DNA of 35,503 nt from a virus (taxonomy: Duplodnaviria > Heunggongvirae > Uroviricota > Caudoviricetes): IMG/VR virus record IMGVR_UViG_2896595138_000012. One strand, written 5' to 3'. Made by a program: the position numbers and the translations under genes. Position 1 is the first letter of the stretch. Each line of letters begins with the position of its first letter. Below are positions 22,933 through 34,418 of the stretch, one piece after another. The notes under the pieces are model-generated. The model did no database searches. It had not been told where the DNA came from and saw nothing but the letters and a program-made list of their open reading frames with translations.

Positions 22933-23026
22933 GAAAGACAATGCAAAGCACCCCCACAACTGGAGCGACTGGCTGGCGATAATCAAAGACTGGTTACGTG
23001 GTGATATCCCTCTTGACAGTCTGCTG

Positions 23027-23278
23027 ATGACTGCCGTCATTGCAGCACTCAGAGTGTTTTACACAGGCCGCAGCTGGCGTCGTCTTTTGCTTGAGGTGCC
23101 GTTGTGTTGCCTGCTGGCCGTGGCGGCATTCACCCTCATTAAGCCGGTCCCCGTCGCATGGCTGACCGAAGACTGGCGCGTCGGTATCGGTGCCGCAATT
23201 GGCCTTATTGGTGTTGAACATATCCGGGCACTGGGTGTGTTCATCACAAAGAAATTTGCAGGGAAAAGTGACGAATGA
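23027..23278 (+). CDS. Holin (N-terminus probably lies upstream at 22941, see findings)
   Basis: 83 aa with two hydrophobic helices and charged C-terminus; stop overlaps lysozyme start. Confidence 0.6.
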   Translation: MTAVIAALRVFYTGRSWRRLLLEVPLCCLLAVAAFTLIKPVPVAWLTEDWRVGIGAAIGLIGVEHIRALGVFITKKFAGKSDE

Positions 23279-24192: not shown

Positions 24193-24492
24193 ATGGCACC
24201 ACTCACCGGGGAAAATAGCATGAAAGACGAAAATACCACCATCATCACCCTGACCGTCGCAGGCGAGGACATTCGCTTCGCCCCGACCGAAGCTGTCTAC
24301 AACAAGTTCGTGAATGAAATAACGATGGATAACAAGGTGGCGCCAGCCAAAAACTACCTGATGCGCTGTGTACACCCGGAAGACAAAGAGAAACTGGAGA
24401 AGCTCATTCACCGCCCGGGAGCAGCCCTTCAGATGGCAGCAAAACTCAATGAAGATTTTGCCGTCAATCTGGATATCACCGTAAAAAAATAA
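24193..24492 (+). CDS. Tail assembly chaperone (P2 gpE-like); -1 frameshift product would extend to 24680
   Basis: 99 aa ending VKK at an A AAA AAA heptamer directly before the tape measure gene. Confidence 0.65.
   Translation: MAPLTGENSMKDENTTIITLTVAGEDIRFAPTEAVYNKFVNEITMDNKVAPAKNYLMRCVHPEDKEKLEKLIHRPGAALQMAAKLNEDFAVNLDITVKK
24483..24489 (+). other. Programmed -1 ribosomal frameshift slippery heptamer
   Basis: A_AAA_AAA in X_XXY_YYZ register at the last two codons of the chaperone; -1 frame open to a TAA at 24678-24680. Confidence 0.6.
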
Positions 24493-24819
24493 AGGCGGCA
24501 CTGTCCGGCATTGAGCGCAACGGCTACGCGCAATATCTGGTATTACGCCGCCACTGGCTACCGGATGGCGAGGACACACCGGAAGACATTGCCGCTGCGG
24601 TCTGGCTGGACAACCGTTATTTCGAAAACATGAGTATTGCCGTCAATAACGGCATTGCGAGAGCATTTAAAGGTGGGTAATGGCTGCTGAACTTGATTTT
24701 ACGCTAAGTCTGGTTGATAAGCTGACGAGACCCTTAAAACAGGCGCAATCGGCTGTGACCGGATTTGCTGACAAGGCAACAGCCGACTTTAAACGTCTCG
24801 GTTTTGGTGTGGCCGGGTT

Positions 24820-26760
24820 ATGGGGGCTGCTCAGGGAATAAAAGGACTGGTCAACCCCGCCCGCGACATGGAAGCCGCGCTGGCCGAAGTCAGCTCGCTG
24901 GATGTGGCAAATAAAACACTCGATCAGCTGCGTAAAACTTCACAGACGTTTGCCATTAACTACGGCGAAAGCGCCAGCAATTTCGTCCGCAGCGCCTACG
25001 ATATCCAGTCCGCCATCGCAGGACTTCAGGGTGACGAACTGCCAAAATTTACTGAAGCATCCGCCATTCTCGCCAAAGCCACCAAATCAGACACGGCCAC
25101 CATTACTAACTATATGGGCACCATGTACGGTGTTTTTAAAAATACCGCAGAGAAGATGGGGCGCACGCAGTGGGTTGAACAAATTGCCGGGCAGACCGCA
25201 ACCGCCGTTCAGGTGTTCAAAACTACCGGTAATGAAATGTCTGCTGCCTTTACTGCGCTGGGTGCCAACGCGCAGGCAATGAAGGTATCTGCCGCTGAAC
25301 AGTTCGCCGTACTGGGACAGCTCCAGTCCACCATGTCAGGCAGCGAGGCGGGAACCAAATATAAATCATTCCTGGCGGGGATTGGGAATGCGCAAAAAGT
25401 GCTGGGGCTGAACTTTACCAACCGGGACGGCAGTGCCAGAAGCATTACCGGTATCATCGACCTGATTAAAGGAAAGTTTGGCGATCTGTCAAAAGTGGCA
25501 GATGCAGACCTGCTGAAAAAAGCCTTTGGCAGCGATGAAGCGGTGTCCATGATTAAACTACTGACCGGAGATGTTGACGGGCTGAAACGGAACATCAATA
25601 CATTAGGTAACATCAAAGGCATGGATAAAGCCATCGAAATGGCGAAAAAGATGGTTGACCCGTGGGATCAGGTTAATTCTTTACTGGAGCAGGTTCGCGT
25701 CAGCATTGGTCTGCGGCTCGATCCCGTCTTTGCCCCGTTCCTGCAAAAAATCATCACCGGCGGGAAAGCCTTCATGAAATGGCTGGATACGTTCCCCAAT
25801 ATTGCCCGCTGGCTGGGATATATCACTGCAATGACCCTCGCCTTTGCCGCAGCAGGGGCGCTTGCCAGTATCACGATGGGGGCCTTCGGCTTTATCATGA
25901 CCGGGCTCAGCGGAATTGCTGGCGTGCTGAAAGGCGCATGGAAAGGACTAATCTTCACCCTGGATTTATTACGCCCCTCCCTGCTTTCAACCCGTCTTGG
26001 CCTGATGGGGCTATGGATTCAGGAAAAAGCCGTCTGGGTGTGGTCAAAGCTGGTCGCTCTTTGGGCAGGGATCTGTAAAGCAGCGATCGTAGCCTGGAAC
26101 GTAGTGTTACGTGCGGGCGCGGTTGCAATGCGCCTGTGGGGCGTGGCGACGGCATTCGCAGGCGGTGCGCTTCAACTCCTGATAAGTCCCATAACCCTGA
26201 TTATTCTCGCCATTGCCGCACTTGCCGTAGGGATCTGTCTGGCTATCAAATACTGGGACAGTATTAAAGCCGCCATCATGGACACGGAAGCTTTCAGTGC
26301 CCTGCTAAAAGTCATTAACGCTGTGGTGGGCTGGTTTGATGATGCATGGAACAGCATTAAAGCCGGATGGGACAATCTGACGAACTGGTTTAAAAATTTC
26401 TCGCTGGCCGACACATTCGGCAATATCACAGCTGGAATTGGCAAGCTCTTTGACGGCATATGGGATTCCATTAAGAGCGCCTTTACCGGGACATGGAACT
26501 GGATAGCAGAGAAGCTCAACAAAATCCCCGGTGTCAATATCAGCACCGCACAACAGACCGTCGCACCGACACCCGCCCCGGAGCTTATCACTGGCAACCG
26601 TAGCGCCGCCATCCAGGGCGGGCCGGTAAGTCACCAGATAAGCAACAACCGGGGCGACAAAGTCACCAATAACAACGTTAAGCAGGATATCACACTGCAC
26701 GTTGACACCCTGGCGACACCGGGACAACTGGCGGAATACAGCGAACTGGCAGCGGGGTGA
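24820..26760 (+). CDS. Tail tape measure protein (5' end apparently frameshifted; true start probably 24680)
   Basis: 646 aa, Ala/Gly-rich with central hydrophobic segments; follows chaperone pair. Confidence 0.8.
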   Translation: MGAAQGIKGLVNPARDMEAALAEVSSLDVANKTLDQLRKTSQTFAINYGESASNFVRSAYDIQSAIAGLQGDELPKFTEASAILAKATKSDTATITNYMGTMYGVFKNTAEKMGRTQWVEQIAGQTATAVQVFKTTGNEMSAAFTALGANAQAMKVSAAEQFAVLGQLQSTMSGSEAGTKYKSFLAGIGNAQKVLGLNFTNRDGSARSITGIIDLIKGKFGDLSKVADADLLKKAFGSDEAVSMIKLLTGDVDGLKRNINTLGNIKGMDKAIEMAKKMVDPWDQVNSLLEQVRVSIGLRLDPVFAPFLQKIITGGKAFMKWLDTFPNIARWLGYITAMTLAFAAAGALASITMGAFGFIMTGLSGIAGVLKGAWKGLIFTLDLLRPSLLSTRLGLMGLWIQEKAVWVWSKLVALWAGICKAAIVAWNVVLRAGAVAMRLWGVATAFAGGALQLLISPITLIILAIAALAVGICLAIKYWDSIKAAIMDTEAFSALLKVINAVVGWFDDAWNSIKAGWDNLTNWFKNFSLADTFGNITAGIGKLFDGIWDSIKSAFTGTWNWIAEKLNKIPGVNISTAQQTVAPTPAPELITGNRSAAIQGGPVSHQISNNRGDKVTNNNVKQDITLHVDTLATPGQLAEYSELAAG

Positions 26761-27102: not shown

Positions 27103-28270
27103 TATCGACTTCAAAAACATACTGCGCGAAAGCGGAATGCCGGTTGATGAACAGACCGTACGTGACACCCTGCAACAGGTGGCAGATGATGAAAAACTCA
27201 TCACCAATACGTCGCGCATGTCGCCATTCTGGCGGCTGATTCAGTTGCTGGTTATCACGCCGTATGTGTGGATTGTTGACACACTGGCTGACAATGTACT
27301 GCATAATCTGTTTCTGATGACTGCCAGAGGGCCGTTCGTTGACCTGTTCGCTGCCGCCCTCAAGCTTACCCGCAAGGAAGCCACGCGTGCGATCGGTAAA
27401 ATCATTTTTACCAAAAACAACCAGAATGACAGTGTGACCGTACCGGCTGGCACACTGATTCAGACGGAGCGTATTAACGGTGTGATTTATTCCATGGCGA
27501 CCCGCGAGCAGGTAATTATCCCCGCAGGCACGCAAAGCACCCTTATTGATGTGATCGCCACCGACAGCGGTACGGCATTCAATCTGGCACCAGGCTATTA
27601 CCAGATACTCCCCAAAGCGATTAACGGAATTGCGTCTGTACGTAACGGTGATAACTGGCTGACCATACCGGGCGCAAACCGCGAAAGTGACGACGAACTG
27701 AAAGATCGTTGCCGTAACCAGTTTAACCTTGCCGGCAGTTATCACACTGACGCAGTTTACCGCAGCCTGATAGCTGCACAGGCCGGACTGACCATCGATC
27801 GCATCTTCTTTTTACATGACGCCCCGCGAGGACCTGGTACAACTAATGCCTACCTGCTGCTGGATACCGGGGTTATTTCGCAACCCTGGGTTGACAGCGT
27901 GAATGATTACATCATGGCACAGGGACATCACGGCCACGGCGATGATATGCGTTGTTTTGCCATGCCGGAAACCCGCCACGATCTGGCGGTTACGGTGTAT
28001 GTTGAAAACCTTTCCAATATCAGCAAAAACGATATCGACGCCCTGAAATCAGGCACTGAAAACCTGATTCGTTGTGCATTCCGTGAAAACAGTAACTACG
28101 ACGTAACCCGCACATGGCCATACAGTCGCTTTTCATTCTCGCAACTGGGACGCGAACTGCATGACACCTTTCCTCTGGTGGGATCCGTGACGTTTTCCCT
28201 TGAGGATATCATCAGCGATCTGAACGTACCCCGCCTGAACACACTGACAGTTGAGGTGAAGAATGCCTGA
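27092..28270 (+). CDS. Baseplate J-like protein
   Basis: 392 aa; size, position and translational coupling typical of baseplate J/gp47 family. Confidence 0.65.
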   Translation: MQNNIDFKNILRESGMPVDEQTVRDTLQQVADDEKLITNTSRMSPFWRLIQLLVITPYVWIVDTLADNVLHNLFLMTARGPFVDLFAAALKLTRKEATRAIGKIIFTKNNQNDSVTVPAGTLIQTERINGVIYSMATREQVIIPAGTQSTLIDVIATDSGTAFNLAPGYYQILPKAINGIASVRNGDNWLTIPGANRESDDELKDRCRNQFNLAGSYHTDAVYRSLIAAQAGLTIDRIFFLHDAPRGPGTTNAYLLLDTGVISQPWVDSVNDYIMAQGHHGHGDDMRCFAMPETRHDLAVTVYVENLSNISKNDIDALKSGTENLIRCAFRENSNYDVTRTWPYSRFSFSQLGRELHDTFPLVGSVTFSLEDIISDLNVPRLNTLTVEVKNA

Positions 28271-28835
28271 TAAATCACCGGACATTAAGTTGCCGTCATG
28301 GCTGAATCGCGGCGATGTGCTCCGCCTGAAAAACACCTTTATCCGTTTCTGGGGAAAGGTGCACGACTGGGTAACATGGCCACTGAGCCAGACCGACCCA
28401 CTGACATGTGCGGAATCCATTCTGAACCTGACAGCCTGGCAATATGATATAGCCCGTTTTGACGGCGAACCGCTCACGCTGTACAGAAAGCGTGTCAAAT
28501 ATGCCTTTATCAACGCACAGGACGCGGGCAGCGTGGCGGGATTCAGGGCAATTTTTGAACGACTGGGGATCGGTTATGTGGAGATTCAGGAGCGCCAGCC
28601 AGGCACAGACTGGGATGTTGTTCTTTTGCGCCTGACAGACAACCAGATCTCAGAAAATACAACATTACTCAATCAGATAATTCGCCAGTACGGTCGCACC
28701 TGCCGCCGTTACCATCTTCAGATAATCACATCCACGGATTGTGTTATCGGACACGGATACTGGCATGGCAGCTATCACTATTTTTATGCACCGGAGATGA
28801 AAAATGACCCAGAGCGCTATCACTTCAGCATTTGA
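28263..28835 (+). CDS. Baseplate/tail protein (P2 gpI-like candidate)
   Basis: 190 aa between J-like gene and tail fibre. Confidence 0.5.
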   Translation: MPDKSPDIKLPSWLNRGDVLRLKNTFIRFWGKVHDWVTWPLSQTDPLTCAESILNLTAWQYDIARFDGEPLTLYRKRVKYAFINAQDAGSVAGFRAIFERLGIGYVEIQERQPGTDWDVVLLRLTDNQISENTTLLNQIIRQYGRTCRRYHLQIITSTDCVIGHGYWHGSYHYFYAPEMKNDPERYHFSI

Positions 28836-28997
28836 GCGCCTGAAAGCGCAGGAAGCCGCAGGCGGCAACCGTATCATCATTGATCAGTTTGTATTTGCAA
28901 ATATCCCGGATCTGAACATTGCCGACACGCCGTCTGAAAACGAACCATTGCCCCCGATGCACAGATAGTTCACCGCCAGAACGTTGATCGCAACGGA

Positions 28998-30809
28998 ATG
29001 GTAAATGAGAACACCGTCGCCTACTCCGTTACCCTGCCGGAGTCCACGGGTGATTTTACTTTTAACTGGCTGGGTCTGGTAAGCAGCACCACAAATACAC
29101 TTTGTATGGTGGTATATCTTCACCCTCAGAAAAAAATAAAAACCGCAGACGGCAAACAGGGTAATACCCTGATTTATTCTGAAATTATGGAATACGCCGG
29201 AGCCAGCGCCGCAACCGGCATCACCACGCCAGTAAGCACCTGGCAGATTGATTTTACGGCACGGCTTCACGGCATGGACGAGGCCACCCGCAAAGCGGCG
29301 CTGGATATCTACGGGCCTGGCCTGTTCTTTAATAACGCCTTTAAACTCACCGCTCAGGCTACCGGGCAGGCGACCTTCGCGCCGGGTATTGCCTATCTGC
29401 GCGGATTACGTGTGGAGCTGGATGAACAAGGCACACTGACATACGCCACCGGAATTTCACAAACTGTTTATGTTGACGCGGCATTAACCGGTACCCTGAC
29501 CGGGGAAAATAAAGCCATATTCAGCCTGACGAGTCAGAAAACAGCCGACTATACCGACAGTTCAGGATTTGCCCATTATGTCGAACCCATCGCCACAATA
29601 TCAGACAGTGGCGAGATCACCGATATACGAAAAACCCGCAAACCATTAAATGACCGCCTTGATGGCGAATACCTGACCCGTAACGGGAACCTGAAAGAAA
29701 TTGCTGACAAAGGTGAACAGGCCCAGTCTGATGCCAGAAAGCATATGGGCCTCGGCGACAGCGCCACCCTTAATGTTGGCACCGCGCAGGACACTGTAGC
29801 CGCAGGTGACGACATCCGCATCACAGGAGCGCTGCAAAAAAATCAGAACGGAGCAGATATTCCCGATAAACCGCTGTTTATCCAGAACGTTGGTTTACAG
29901 GAAACGGTAAACAAGGCTGATAACGCTGTCCAAAAGACAGGCGATACCTTGTCCGGTGGACTTACTTTTGAAAACGACTCAACCCTTGCCTGGATTCGAA
30001 ATACTGACTGGGCAAAGATTGGTTTTAAAAATAATGCCGACAGCGATACTGATTCATACATGTGGTTTGAAACAGGTGACAACGGCAATGAGTATTTCAA
30101 ATGGAGACACCGCCTCGCTGGCGGCCGGGTTAAAGACCTGATGAATCTCAAATGGGATACACTAAATATTCTGGTTAATGCCGTCATTAATGGTTGTCTT
30201 GGAATTGGTACGACGAATGCGTTAGGTGGAAGTTCAATCGTTTTAGGAGATAACGATACCGGGTTTAAACAAAATGGCGATGGTCTGCTTGATGTTTATG
30301 CGAATGGACAGCATGTATTTCGTTTTCAGAATGGCGTGGCTATTGCTTTTAAGAATATTCAGGCCGGAACTGCCAGAAAATTCACGTTATCCAGCGCCAA
30401 CAACTCCACGAAAAATGCAGCGTTTTGTTTGTGGGGTAATCCATCCAGGCCTGTTGTTGCAGAGCTTGGTGATGATTCAGGCTGGCATTTTTTCAGCCAG
30501 AGGAATACAGATAACAGCATCACGTTCGCCGTAAACGGACAGGTAATTCCGTTAAATTACGGAAACTTCGATGCCCGCTATAAACATCGAACTGAGGGGG
30601 TACAGGATGTGCGATATGGCCATGAAATGTATTACGGCCCCGGCAGTAACACCGTTTCGTGGACATTTCGCGCACCTTCGGGACACGGGCTGTCAGGGGT
30701 AAAGATATCGGATACCCACCGTAACTCAGCGGATAACGTTGACGGTGTGTATTACCGACCGCTGCAAAAACTGATTAATGGCACCTGGTATAACGTAGCG
30801 AGTATTTAA
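28998..30809 (+). CDS. Tail fibre protein (5' end apparently frameshifted; true start probably 28804)
   Basis: 603 aa; AT-rich, Gly/Asn-rich distal half typical of receptor-binding region; followed by fibre assembly gene. Confidence 0.75.
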
Positions 30810-30810
30810 T

Positions 30811-31338
30811 ATGATGCACTTAAAGAACATAAAAGCGGGTAACACTAAAACGCCGGAACAGTATGAGTTAACAAAGAAGCACAGAGTCATCTGGCTTTAC
30901 GCTGAAGACGGGAAAAACTGGTATGAGGAAGTGAAGAACTTTCAGCCAGATACAATAAAGATTGTTTACGACGAAAATAATATTATTGTTGCCATTACCA
31001 AAGATACCTCAACGCTTAATCCTGAAGGTTTCAGCGTTGTCGAAGTTCCTGATATTACCGCCAACCGACGTGCTGATGACTCCGGGAAGTGGATGTTTAA
31101 GGACGGAGCTGTGGTTAAGCGGATTTATACGGCAGGCGAGCAGCAACAACAGGCCGAATCACAAAAGGCCGCGTTACTTTCCGAAGCTGAATCAGTCATC
31201 CAGCCGCTGGAACGCGCTGTCAGGCTGAATATGGCAACAGACGAGGAACGCACACGACTGGAAGCATGGGAACGCTACAGTGTTCTGGTCAGCCGTGTGG
31301 ACACTGCAAAACCTGAATGGCCACAAAAGCCCGGGTGA
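30811..31338 (+). CDS. Tail fibre assembly chaperone (Tfa-like)
   Basis: 175 aa; C-terminal W-x-Y ... RVD ... PEWPQKP region typical of Tfa proteins. Confidence 0.75.
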
Positions 31339-31474: not shown

Positions 31475-31597
31475 ATGTGGTTTCCGGCAAAACTGATGCT
31501 TCCGACAGGTAATATCACCCCCATAACATGTTCAGCTATGGCCGTACATCCGTGGGATGTTGAAGCGGGCACATTACGCCAGACGGTGCGTATTTAA
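31475..31597 (+). CDS. Small ORF of unknown function (possible gene remnant or frameshifted 5' end of next gene)
   Basis: 40 aa; AGAGAGG RBS 6 nt upstream of ATG. Confidence 0.3.
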   Translation: MWFPAKLMLPTGNITPITCSAMAVHPWDVEAGTLRQTVRI

Positions 31598-31671
31598 GCC
31601 CCGTCAACGCAATAAACCACCTTAACAGCAAACTCCCGGGCCTGACCGAAAACAGCGATATCGCCATCATA

Positions 31672-32217
31672 ATGGTAACAGGCAGCAATAATAACGATTT
31701 TATTCGTCAACTGTCAGCACTGGCAGACACACTCCCTTTACCCACTCTGACGCAGACGCTAAGACGCGCAAGAACACAGCTCACCCAGGCAATCACCAGA
31801 ATGCAAATCCCGGCGACACCACAGAACGGACTACCCGCTCCGCAACCACTTATTGCCAGCACACTACAGAACAGCATCAGTAACCACACCGCGCTTAACG
31901 CTATGAAGGCCGAAGGGCTGAACTCTGTCGACTCACTGAAAAACGCGTTATCCGGTTTTCAGGCACAACGTCAACGGTTGCAGCAACAGATAATCGCTGA
32001 ACTGGCAGGAGCAGGCGATAAAGTGGCAAAAGCATTTGCGTTCGTGCACACCGGCGACGCCGTTTTAGCCCGCCGGGAAATGATGAAAAATATTCCGCAC
32101 CCCACAGCTTCACTGACATATGCACACCTGTTCGCAGGCGATCTTTCCGGGATGCTGAACTGGATAACGAAGGCAGAAAATGAGCCAGAACACGACAACG
32201 CCACTGCTGGCCCTTAA
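31672..32217 (+). CDS. Tail/baseplate-associated protein candidate
   Basis: 181-aa ORF in late tail operon. Confidence 0.45.
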   Translation: MVTGSNNNDFIRQLSALADTLPLPTLTQTLRRARTQLTQAITRMQIPATPQNGLPAPQPLIASTLQNSISNHTALNAMKAEGLNSVDSLKNALSGFQAQRQRLQQQIIAELAGAGDKVAKAFAFVHTGDAVLARREMMKNIPHPTASLTYAHLFAGDLSGMLNWITKAENEPEHDNATAGP

Positions 32218-32746
32218 TGGTCAGATAATCCCGCTAAAACGCTTAAGTGTCAGCGTGAAGCTGACCATCAAAGACAAAGACGCTTCCGGAAAATCCTCAT
32301 CAACAGCGACTTCAGAACAGGGTGTAAAAGCCAAGGAGCTGCAGATTTCCGGACTGATTCCGTTCACCCAGCCGGAAGCACTCACACGCTTATTTCGTCT
32401 GGCTGAAGCCAGAGCCGCTAACGGTGCACAACAGGTTTACCGCATCGCCAACATGGATGCCAAAGCGGTCAATATGAAGCAAGGGATTTTTTCCGGTGCC
32501 GTGGGCGCAACTCCTGAAACAGGCCTGATGGCATGGAAAGTTGACTTCACTCTGAAAGAAAAACTCAGCAGTGCCGAAAAGGCGACAGGACGCGGCCCGG
32601 CTGGCAGCCAGAGTGCTGAACAGCACGCACAGGCCGTCAAATCAGGTGGCAAAGGCGAAAAAAACGAAGAGCATGGCTGGTTCTGGAAAATGTCAGACAA
32701 ACTCAATAACTGGATAGGCCCGGCAGGCAATGAAACCAATTCGTGA
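32180..32746 (+). CDS. Tail/baseplate-associated protein candidate
   Basis: 188-aa ORF overlapping neighbours on both sides. Confidence 0.45.
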   Translation: MSQNTTTPLLALNGQIIPLKRLSVSVKLTIKDKDASGKSSSTATSEQGVKAKELQISGLIPFTQPEALTRLFRLAEARAANGAQQVYRIANMDAKAVNMKQGIFSGAVGATPETGLMAWKVDFTLKEKLSSAEKATGRGPAGSQSAEQHAQAVKSGGKGEKNEEHGWFWKMSDKLNNWIGPAGNETNS

Positions 32747-34418
32747 TCTCTGCATTAACGGCAGGCGTTATCCTGTCGTGGAAGAAAACATCATGTTGCG
32801 TCTCAACGGCGCGGGAACCGGCTTTATCACCATTAACGCCGCCGACAATACTCCCCCGCTACGCGGCAAACCCGTAGAGCTGTCCATCGGTTACAATGAT
32901 CAGCCTGTAAAGTGGTTTTCGGGATATGTGGAAAGTGACAGTTGTACAGGCAGAGGGCTGCACAAGCTGATGGTGCGCGAAGCTGCTGCTATTCTGCAAT
33001 ACCCGCTCAACATCTCCATGCAGCATCCGACGCTGAAACAGGTCGCAGGACACATTGAAGGCAATACAGGTTTACGCATACAACTCCCGAAGGCAGGCTA
33101 CACCACCACTCCGGTCCCTCATCTGACCCACAATGGCAACGGTTATCAGCTGATGGCCATGCTTGGCCGCATATTCAGTATCCCGGATTACGTCTGGTAT
33201 CCGTCGGTTGACGGCATCATCTACGCCGGAAGCTTTGCTGACTGCCGTTTTGCAAAACGCCCTGCCAGATTGCCGGTCGATATCACCAGAGGTGATCACG
33301 GAGCAAATGGCTGGACAATACAGACGATTCCCATGATGCGCCCCGGCGTGGTCATGAACGATCACCGTATAAATCAGGTACAGCTACAGGGCGACAGCAT
33401 GATCATTAGCTGGAGTGATGGCCGTCAGTCGCCCGTACAACGCCAGATCGAAACCCTTTACCCCGAGATAGGCAACAAAACCCACCTTCCACGCATGGGA
33501 CGCGTGATCTCACCAACTGAAAACACAACCCAGGGGGATTTGCATGATGAATTTCGCCCACGCTACGCCGTCAATGTGCAGTTGCTCGACGAGAACGGCA
33601 CCCCCGATAAGAACACACCGGTATATAACGCCGTCCCCGTTCCTGTGCCAATGGCCGGCAATGAATCCGGGATATTCCAGTACCCGCCCCCAGGAACCAT
33701 AGTTACACTGGCCCACGTTGACGGCAGGCCGGATAAACCCATCATCACCGGCACTCACGCCAGCGGCCAGAGTCTGCCGGGAATAAAGCCCGGCGAACAA
33801 CTACAACAGCAACGCGCAGAGGTATTCCAGCGTGTGCATACAGATGGCACATGGCAGCGTGAAACCGATCAGGTTATTCGTGAGAAATCCACCGACCGCA
33901 TCATCCAGAACACAACGGAAACGCGCACCAGTACCACTCGTAATATTACCGTAAAGGCCAACAACACCATAACGGTGCTCGGCACTCATAAGCTGATGAG
34001 CGGCCACATACAGCACATCGCAGACGGTGACTATGCCGTAGCCGCCACGAAGAAACTGATACAGCACGCCGACAGCGCTGAACTCGACGTTACTCACCAG
34101 TGGCAAACCAGCACAGAAAGCACCACCCACAATGTGGCGAAAACGCTGGAAGAAAAGATTGGCCGGATTAAAAAATCCGTCGCTGGCCAGATGCAACAGA
34201 TCATCGCCCCGCAGGTCTGGTTTGGCAGCAATACCATCAACACACTTAACCTCATGCTGGATCTTTGCGACACCGTTCAGCAACTGGCGCAGCTCACCGC
34301 ACAACACACTCATACCAACAACGGGTCGTCACAGCCCACCAACAGCGGCAGCATAGACACGGTGGCATCAATGGCAGGCAACCTGAAAGCGAAGTACAGT
34401 ACCGTGATTAAGCAGTAA
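32730..34418 (+). CDS. Baseplate hub / late control D-like tail protein candidate
   Basis: 562 aa, last gene of the tail operon. Confidence 0.5.
   Translation: MKPIRDLCINGRRYPVVEENIMLRLNGAGTGFITINAADNTPPLRGKPVELSIGYNDQPVKWFSGYVESDSCTGRGLHKLMVREAAAILQYPLNISMQHPTLKQVAGHIEGNTGLRIQLPKAGYTTTPVPHLTHNGNGYQLMAMLGRIFSIPDYVWYPSVDGIIYAGSFADCRFAKRPARLPVDITRGDHGANGWTIQTIPMMRPGVVMNDHRINQVQLQGDSMIISWSDGRQSPVQRQIETLYPEIGNKTHLPRMGRVISPTENTTQGDLHDEFRPRYAVNVQLLDENGTPDKNTPVYNAVPVPVPMAGNESGIFQYPPPGTIVTLAHVDGRPDKPIITGTHASGQSLPGIKPGEQLQQQRAEVFQRVHTDGTWQRETDQVIREKSTDRIIQNTTETRTSTTRNITVKANNTITVLGTHKLMSGHIQHIADGDYAVAATKKLIQHADSAELDVTHQWQTSTESTTHNVAKTLEEKIGRIKKSVAGQMQQIIAPQVWFGSNTINTLNLMLDLCDTVQQLAQLTAQHTHTNNGSSQPTNSGSIDTVASMAGNLKAKYSTVIKQ

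Follow-up and report, generated by a model that had tools for sequence, protein, structure and literature searches.

The stretch of DNA analyzed here, 35,503 nucleotides in length and referred to below as the window, contains a complete prophage whose replication and head genes are of P2 type and whose tail module is like that of HP1. An integrase gene (positions 1-1002) lies at the left end and hok/gef at the right, and the prophage is integrated between yecA and a tRNA-Leu/Cys/Gly cluster. Several insertion sequences are present: an IS110-family element sits inside the prophage at approximately 12106-13554, IS1 adjoins the integrase, and an IS3-family insertion and an interrupted araF are found in the host region. 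The host looks like a Shigella-type genome rich in insertion sequences, a background in which real pseudogenes are common. The tail module also holds a programmed -1 frameshift signal, A AAA AAA, at 24483-89, and the corresponding -1 ORF ends at the start of the tape measure gene.

The tail fiber gene follows a gpI-like baseplate gene and precedes tfa, after which come three more baseplate-type genes (Table 1). As it stands in the window, the fiber gene is in two pieces. The first begins with an ATG at 28804-06, inside the end of the gpI-like gene (28263-28835), so that the two genes overlap by 32 nt. The ORF list and the translation agree that it is a 54-codon ORF, MTQSAITSAFERLKAQEAAGGNRIIIDQFVFANIPDLNIADTPSENEPLPPMHR, closed by a TAG at 28966-68. 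The second piece lies in the -1 frame, which is open from 28938 and shares 31 nt with the first. The frame is set by the length of a single cytosine tract, C6 giving one protein of 668 aa and C5 giving ORFs of 54 and 603 aa. This layout is as the original prediction described it, including the positions of the ATG, the stop, the C5 run (28951-55), and the -1 frame, and the overlap of the ATG with an upstream baseplate gene.

Table 1. Features of the tail fiber locus and sites of one-base deficits in the window
Feature	Coordinates	Strand	Remarks
gpI-like baseplate gene (Tail_P2_I)	28263..28835	+	Pfam and annotation of relatives
N-terminal fiber fragment	28804..28968	+	First 50 codons authentic, last 4 out of frame, closed by TAG
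Rest of fiber gene, -1 frame	28938..30809	+	First ATG at 28998, giving a 603-aa ORF
C5 run, site of one-base deficit in fiber gene	28951..28955		C6 in every other full-length copy examined
Tail fiber assembly protein gene tfa (Caudo_TAP), intact	30811..31338	+	Pfam
Holin, C5 (C6 in relatives)	22951..22955		Codons 4-6 of holin (ATG 22942)
Tape measure, G5 (G6 in relatives)	24822..24826		Alignment to related prophages
Hypothetical gene after tfa, G3 (G4 in relatives)	31567..31569		Alignment to related prophages
Replication endonuclease, three further one-base deficits	10642..11393	+	Gene cut into three ORFs

When the sixth C is supplied, residues 4-158 of the resulting 668-aa protein match PF12571, the tail-collar fiber N-terminal domain, with a score of 97.2 bits against a gathering cut-off of 23, and its neighbors match Tail_P2_I and Caudo_TAP. 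In the window this domain is split, the 54-aa ORF covering profile positions 6-48 and the 603-aa ORF positions 68-149. Besides the remainder of PF12571, the 603-aa part includes a Gp34_trimer domain and a receptor-binding end like those of P2 H and Mu S. At the DNA level, the 3' part of the fiber gene together with tfa is 83-90% identical to P2 H/G, Mu S/U, and SfMu. Since each piece matches one half of a single PF12571 domain, the structural part of the original prediction, namely that an N-terminal portion is out of frame with the rest of the fiber, is correct; the portion concerned is the first 50 codons. With the repair, this is an unremarkable tail fiber gene of the P2/Mu type, one that is already annotated as intact in many E. 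coli genomes.

A megablast search with positions 28500-29500 against 5,426 complete E. coli genomes returned six genomes at 99.9% identity, in which the matching segment is 1002 bases long, compared to 1001 in the window. All six of these RefSeq matches have C6 and a single CDS of 2007 nt (668 aa) that starts at the same ATG as the one at 28804 in the window, annotated as “phage tail-collar fiber domain-containing protein.” Across 220 flanking nt the window is 100% identical to the six copies, the sole difference being the one extra C, and the 54-aa ORF begins exactly as their intact 668-aa CDS does. The proposal that one extra C would give a continuous fiber is thus borne out by these relatives, in which C6 goes with an intact 668-aa gene.

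More distant homologs are consistent with this. Fourteen of them, from Salmonella, Klebsiella, Yersinia, Xenorhabdus, and Photorhabdus, have the same N-terminus and run uninterrupted across the site. They come from a protein search with the N-terminal 186 aa, whose matches are mostly partial proteins and are suited to judging conservation but not to counting alleles. All 14 homologs retain P50 and the IVHxQ motif after it. At the protein level, about half of them have A, E, or T in place of the second proline, so that there is no conserved C tract. Every homolog and other copy examined has a single ORF, and a two-ORF fiber layout was seen in none of them. The original prediction had named homologs beginning at the internal ATG at 28998 among its grounds for refutation; no homolog examined begins there, and all start upstream and read through.

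The length of the tract was tabulated across genomes and contigs. It is C6 in 16 of 16 other genomes, and C5 is limited to the source record of the window (CP026845.1) and two short Logan contigs, from SRR17645348 and SRR23545695. In a public collection, 3 contigs carry the 54-aa frameshift product, compared to 420 blocks listed for the neighboring gpI-like protein. Among ten of those 420 blocks that were listed with the exact gpI-like protein, the 668-aa fiber is called intact in seven; two others still have C6, these being CP091384.1, which is riddled with indels, and CP046676.1, in which no fiber gene was called. The SRR17645348 fiber contig matches the window exactly, yet it carries further homopolymer deficits unique to it, as does the tape-measure contig from the same run, and so its C5 fits noisy reads. 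Over 1.66 kb, the SRR23545695 contig, also with C5, shows three transitions but is free of any further indel, and it is the one hint in these sequences that a real C5 allele could exist somewhere. An exact scan for the tract pattern at lengths C4 to C9 gave 0 matches in GTDB species-representative genomes and 0 in JGI metagenomes, and we found no mention of CP026845, the assembly identifiers, or the SRR identifiers in the papers searched in full text.

The fiber gene is not alone in lacking one base (Table 1). Owing to the deficit at 22951-55, the holin is called from an internal ATG at 23027, as 83 aa rather than 112. The tape measure is split into ORFs at 24680-24841 (53 aa) and 24820-26760 (646 aa), compared to a single gene of 693 aa, and the hypothetical gene into 31475-31597 (40 aa) and 31672-32217 (181 aa), compared to one of 226-247 aa. 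The three deficits in the replication endonuclease (G3 at 10642-44, G3 at 11200-02, and CC at 11392-93) are less certain, as the references there are only 84-99% identical. A difference of A5 versus A6 at 17786-90 was rejected as a deficit of the window because it is peculiar to FDAARGOS_943. For the left arm, L030 was rejected as a reference of the same lineage, its identity being only 98.5%.

We compared the 22-kb late block of the window with two related prophages and found that every true indel is a one-base deficit of the window inside a homopolymer. Against E. coli VL40, block 13555-35503 shows 2 substitutions in 21,949 bases and 4 one-base deficits. The four deficits, in the holin, tape measure, fiber, and hypothetical genes, are all in G/C runs, and each splits its gene. 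Against GCA_900450175.1 and GCA_012816475.1 there are 0 substitutions over approximately 14.7 kb of prophage and the identical four deficits. The adjoining chromosome differs from those two genomes by 62 substitutions in 5.8 kb. With the prophage identical and its flanks about 1% apart, these are evidently copies of one phage in different hosts, acquired very recently. In mutation-accumulation data for E. coli, substitutions are about tenfold commoner than 1-bp indels. Given that ratio and the zero to two substitutions seen, four real frameshifts are implausible, with a probability of about 10^-4 to 10^-2. Neither nonsense mutations nor +1 events were seen in the comparison of the window with its references.

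The deficits also depend on the type of run. The reference for the late block has seven G/C 6-mers, three of which are one base short in the window, and none of its 20 A/T runs of 6 or more is changed. The left chromosomal flank has one G/C 6-mer, an intergenic run that four other genomes have as G6 and the source record has as G5; the right flank is without any. Over the 51 kb examined overall, 4 of 8 G/C 6-mers are one base short, compared to none of the A/T runs of at least 6 bases, about 50 in all. Since half of the G/C 6-mers are short, whether coding or not and whether in prophage or chromosome, the pattern points to a systematic consensus error rather than to selection for a fiber switch.

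Other assemblies show what can happen at the same tracts. In GCA_002968245.1, from another strain, the locus is present three times at contig ends, in copies that are 0-1 substitutions but 20-44 indels apart. The three copies disagree at the holin tract (C6, C6, and C5) and at the tape-measure tract (G5, G5, and G6). A single physical sequence is thus rendered with differing run lengths, which makes these two tracts demonstrated hot spots of assembly error. The fiber tract is C6 in all three. CP091384.1 is riddled with indels in the manner of the GCA_002968245.1 copies, and the tape measure and holin frameshift peptides are also found in a few other assemblies. As to the sequencing platform, the ShigaPass paper (PMC10132075), citing Kim et al., describes CP026832, from S. 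dysenteriae ATCC 49346, as sequenced with PacBio and as one of a set of 59 historical Shigella strains. The source record CP026845.1 (GCA_002950375.1) stands thirteen accessions from CP026832 in the same series, and from accession adjacency alone we infer that it came from the same PacBio batch.

Because the same record is short at other G/C runs and otherwise-identical copies are intact, the C5 at 28951-55 is most likely an error: in all likelihood the DNA has C6 and the assembly consensus lost one C. The under-called tract would then split an intact 668-aa gene into 54-aa and 603-aa ORFs on paper only, through homopolymer under-calling in long reads, probably PacBio. The real DNA would encode one ordinary fiber protein, with translation starting at the ATG at 28804. 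That protein would attach to the baseplate through its PF12571 domain and to the receptor through its P2 H/Mu S-like C-terminus, the latter folded with the help of the Tfa chaperone encoded downstream. The two-ORF fiber is real in the record and, judging from the sequence comparisons, most probably not real in the DNA. The caveat in the original prediction that the site might be a base-calling error is therefore the explanation that the evidence favors. Three points stand against an artifact. A PacBio assembly that has been polished well would be expected to have fewer than the roughly four errors per 22 kb counted here. Two independent Logan assemblies also show C5, and the allele in one of them, SRR23545695, could be real. 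Finally, the apparent Shigella-type host is one in which real pseudogenes would not be surprising.

The alternative that keeps the most force is a genuine fixed mutation. The prophage would be decaying in its Shigella-type host, with slipped-strand deletions in G/C runs having inactivated the fiber, the tape measure, the holin, and other genes, and the fiber would be a pseudogene without any switch. Homopolymers are real mutational hot spots, and the IS110-family insertion in the prophage, the IS1 and IS3-family insertions in the host region, and the occurrence of C5 in SRR23545695 on a slightly different haplotype without another indel would all suit such a history. However, decay would have produced four frameshifts against no substitution in 14.7 kb (two in 22 kb), with no nonsense mutation and no +1 event, and would have struck half of the G/C 6-mers, including the intergenic one in the chromosome, and spared the A/T runs. 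Moreover, one assembly of another strain by itself gives both lengths at the holin and tape-measure tracts. We regard the mutational reading as unlikely, both for the fiber as a fixed pseudogene and for the wider decay of the phage.

The original prediction had raised the idea of a phase-variation switch. On this reading, slipped-strand changes would turn the fiber ON (C6) or OFF (C5) in populations of lysogens or phages, and attachment of the fiber to the baseplate would be shut off at an appreciable rate. C5 in CP026845.1, SRR23545695, and SRR17645348 would then represent independent OFF variants of a slip-prone, phase-variable prophage fiber. The frames do follow from the tract length as such a switch requires, and C5 does occur in three independent data sets. 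The idea is nevertheless unsupported. The tract is merely 5-6 nt long, and known contingency loci have roughly 7 or more G/C. It is C6 in all 16 other genomes, and just 3 contigs have the frameshift peptide, compared to 420 blocks with the product of the adjacent gene. The codon for the second proline gives A, E, or T in about half of the homologs, so the tract is not conserved, and identical deficits occur in unrelated genes and in intergenic DNA of the same record. A virion without fiber attachment also has no obvious selective value. A switch at this tract is highly improbable, and we give the same low weight to the three C5 sequences being independent OFF variants.

Joining of the two ORFs by a programmed -1 ribosomal frameshift or by transcriptional slippage at the C run is scarcely credible: the second ORF does lie in the -1 frame and overlaps the first by 31 nt, but there is no X XXY YYZ heptamer, the G CCC CCG present disallows P-site re-pairing, the downstream 80 nt fold like shuffled sequence (z = 0.13), the two-ORF layout is found in no homolog, and C5 is far too short for slippage by RNA polymerase. 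Switching and recoding would remain very unlikely even when taken together. A Mu-like invertible segment was also considered and rejected, as the fiber is without an invertase or an alternative fiber end and its 17-nt inverted repeat is in a single orientation.

At least the holin, tape measure, fiber, and hypothetical genes probably look broken for one reason, and the replication endonuclease probably does so as well. For that reason the prophage may be wrongly scored as defective. Runs of about six G or C in this and similar long-read-only assemblies need read support, and frameshifts at such runs should not be taken as pseudogenes, recoding, or phase variation unless reads support them. Were the frameshift real, a freshly acquired phage would have been disabled within a very short time; an interesting fiber switch would be at hand only if the length of the tract varied within a population. 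As biology, the C5 observation matters little.

Among known systems, the fiber itself is closest to the P2 gpH type with its Tfa partner (P2 gpG, Mu U), which it resembles in PF12571, the Gp34_trimer domain, the C-terminus, and the presence of tfa. As in P2, the fiber gene comes after a gpJ/gpI-like pair of baseplate genes. Its N-terminal domain belongs to another sub-lineage, with 82% identity to Salmonella and approximately 57% to other E. coli copies, and the module around it is HP1-like rather than P2-like, with three extra baseplate-type genes after tfa.

Several phages are known to vary fibers of this gene class, namely Mu with Gin and the G segment, P1 with Cin and the C segment, and Bordetella phage BPP-1 with its diversity-generating retroelement. 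Mu S/U is homologous to the receptor-binding end of the fiber in the window. Unlike those systems, the fiber here has no invertase, alternative fiber end, or reverse transcriptase near it, and the only notable repeat nearby is a conserved 17-nt inverted pair that is in one orientation throughout. The poly-G/C contingency loci of Neisseria, Haemophilus, and Campylobacter are like the window in that a homopolymer early in a surface-recognition gene sets its frame; they differ in that the tract here is too short, invariant as C6 in 16 other genomes, and unconserved, and is accompanied by deficits elsewhere in the record. Tail assembly chaperones made by -1 frameshifting, such as lambda G/GT and P2 E/E+E', do have a counterpart in the window, but it belongs to another gene and lies 4.4 kb upstream of the fiber site, which itself has neither a slippery heptamer nor a conserved two-ORF layout.

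The best likeness is to the homopolymer errors of long-read-only assemblies. At about 1 per 5 kb, with half of all G/C 6-mers affected, the deficits here are somewhat denser than polishing would normally leave. The window resembles that class in several respects: the single-base deficits are confined to homopolymers, several unrelated genes are hit, the ratio of indels to substitutions is inverted, and, in another assembly, redundant copies of the same locus disagree with one another.

The holin, the tape measure and the hypothetical gene that follows the tail fibre assembly gene (tfa) are each split by a G or C run one base shorter than in the twin prophages, the near-identical copies in other genomes. 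All three are the same type of event as the frameshift that splits the tail-collar fibre gene. Single-base deficits at three sites likewise break the gpA-like replication endonuclease (window 8583-11769) into three ORFs; its relatives have a single protein of 824-838 aa. Because the references over this gene are only 84-99% identical, it is less certain here whether the deficits are real or errors. At 14385-14393 the window reads CCACCCCCC and the related prophage of E. coli VL40 reads C9. This is one of just two sites at which they differ by a "substitution" over 22 kb, and VL40 itself may carry a homopolymer-related error here.

Coordinates and properties of the features discussed
Feature	Window position	Description
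Replication endonuclease deficits (vs references)	10642-44; 11200-02; 11392-93	G3; G3; CC
IS110-family insertion sequence	~12106-13554; ORF 12333-13529	398 aa; DEDD_Tnp_IS110 / Transposase_20
Holin run	22951-22955	C5 vs C6 in twin prophages; holin split
Chaperone-region ORFs	24193-24492; 24489-24680	
Tape measure run	24822-24826	G5 vs G6 in twin prophages; tape measure split
Inverted repeat GCCATATTCAGCCTGAC	29514-29530 (+); 31219-31235 (-)	17 nt, perfect; arms in fibre gene / tfa gene
Hypothetical post-tfa gene run	31567-31569	G3 vs G4 in twin prophages; gene split
Post-tfa gene 1		Hypothetical, 226-247 aa
Post-tfa gene 2		HP1_ORF34 "baseplate complex", 188 aa
Post-tfa gene 3		562 aa; Vgr-family by annotation in one relative

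Across the late region (13555-35503), three prophage copies in other genomes (L044, L046 and L027) show 0-2 substitutions in 15-22 kb, whereas the adjacent host chromosome differs by ~1%; its spread among E. coli and Shigella lineages must therefore be very recent. Integration in these hosts is always at yecA/tRNA-Leu. The IS110-family element lies within the prophage, with replication-side genes on one side and ogr/portal on the other. It is absent from the FDAARGOS_943 and VL40 prophages, and at the same junction CFSAN029787 carries IS600 and extra genes.

On the chromosome to the left of the prophage in the source genome (locus L029, 17625-19232 and 19653-21002), an IS3-family element truncates araF, araG/araH are absent, and otsB-otsA is called as a single 630-aa product with both domains. 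The state of these ara and ots genes may reflect either real decay of the Shigella type or a further frameshift artefact.

The Phage_TAC_10 ORF has at its end the sequence A AAA AAA (24483-24489), a canonical -1 frameshift signal of the tail-assembly-chaperone type. Beyond it the -1 frame continues for 63 more codons, corresponding to the DUF6890 ORF that is annotated separately in relatives, and terminates at TAATG, overlapping the tape measure start at 24680.

For the perfect inverted repeat spanning the fibre and tfa genes, ~0.01 matches per window are expected by chance. The pair is kept in ~30 related loci, one of them 96% identical, and its orientation is never reversed; no invertase was found near the repeat in the fibre/tfa region.

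Three further structural genes (31539-34418) lie downstream of the fibre gene and tfa rather than upstream, which is not the usual arrangement in P2-like tail modules.
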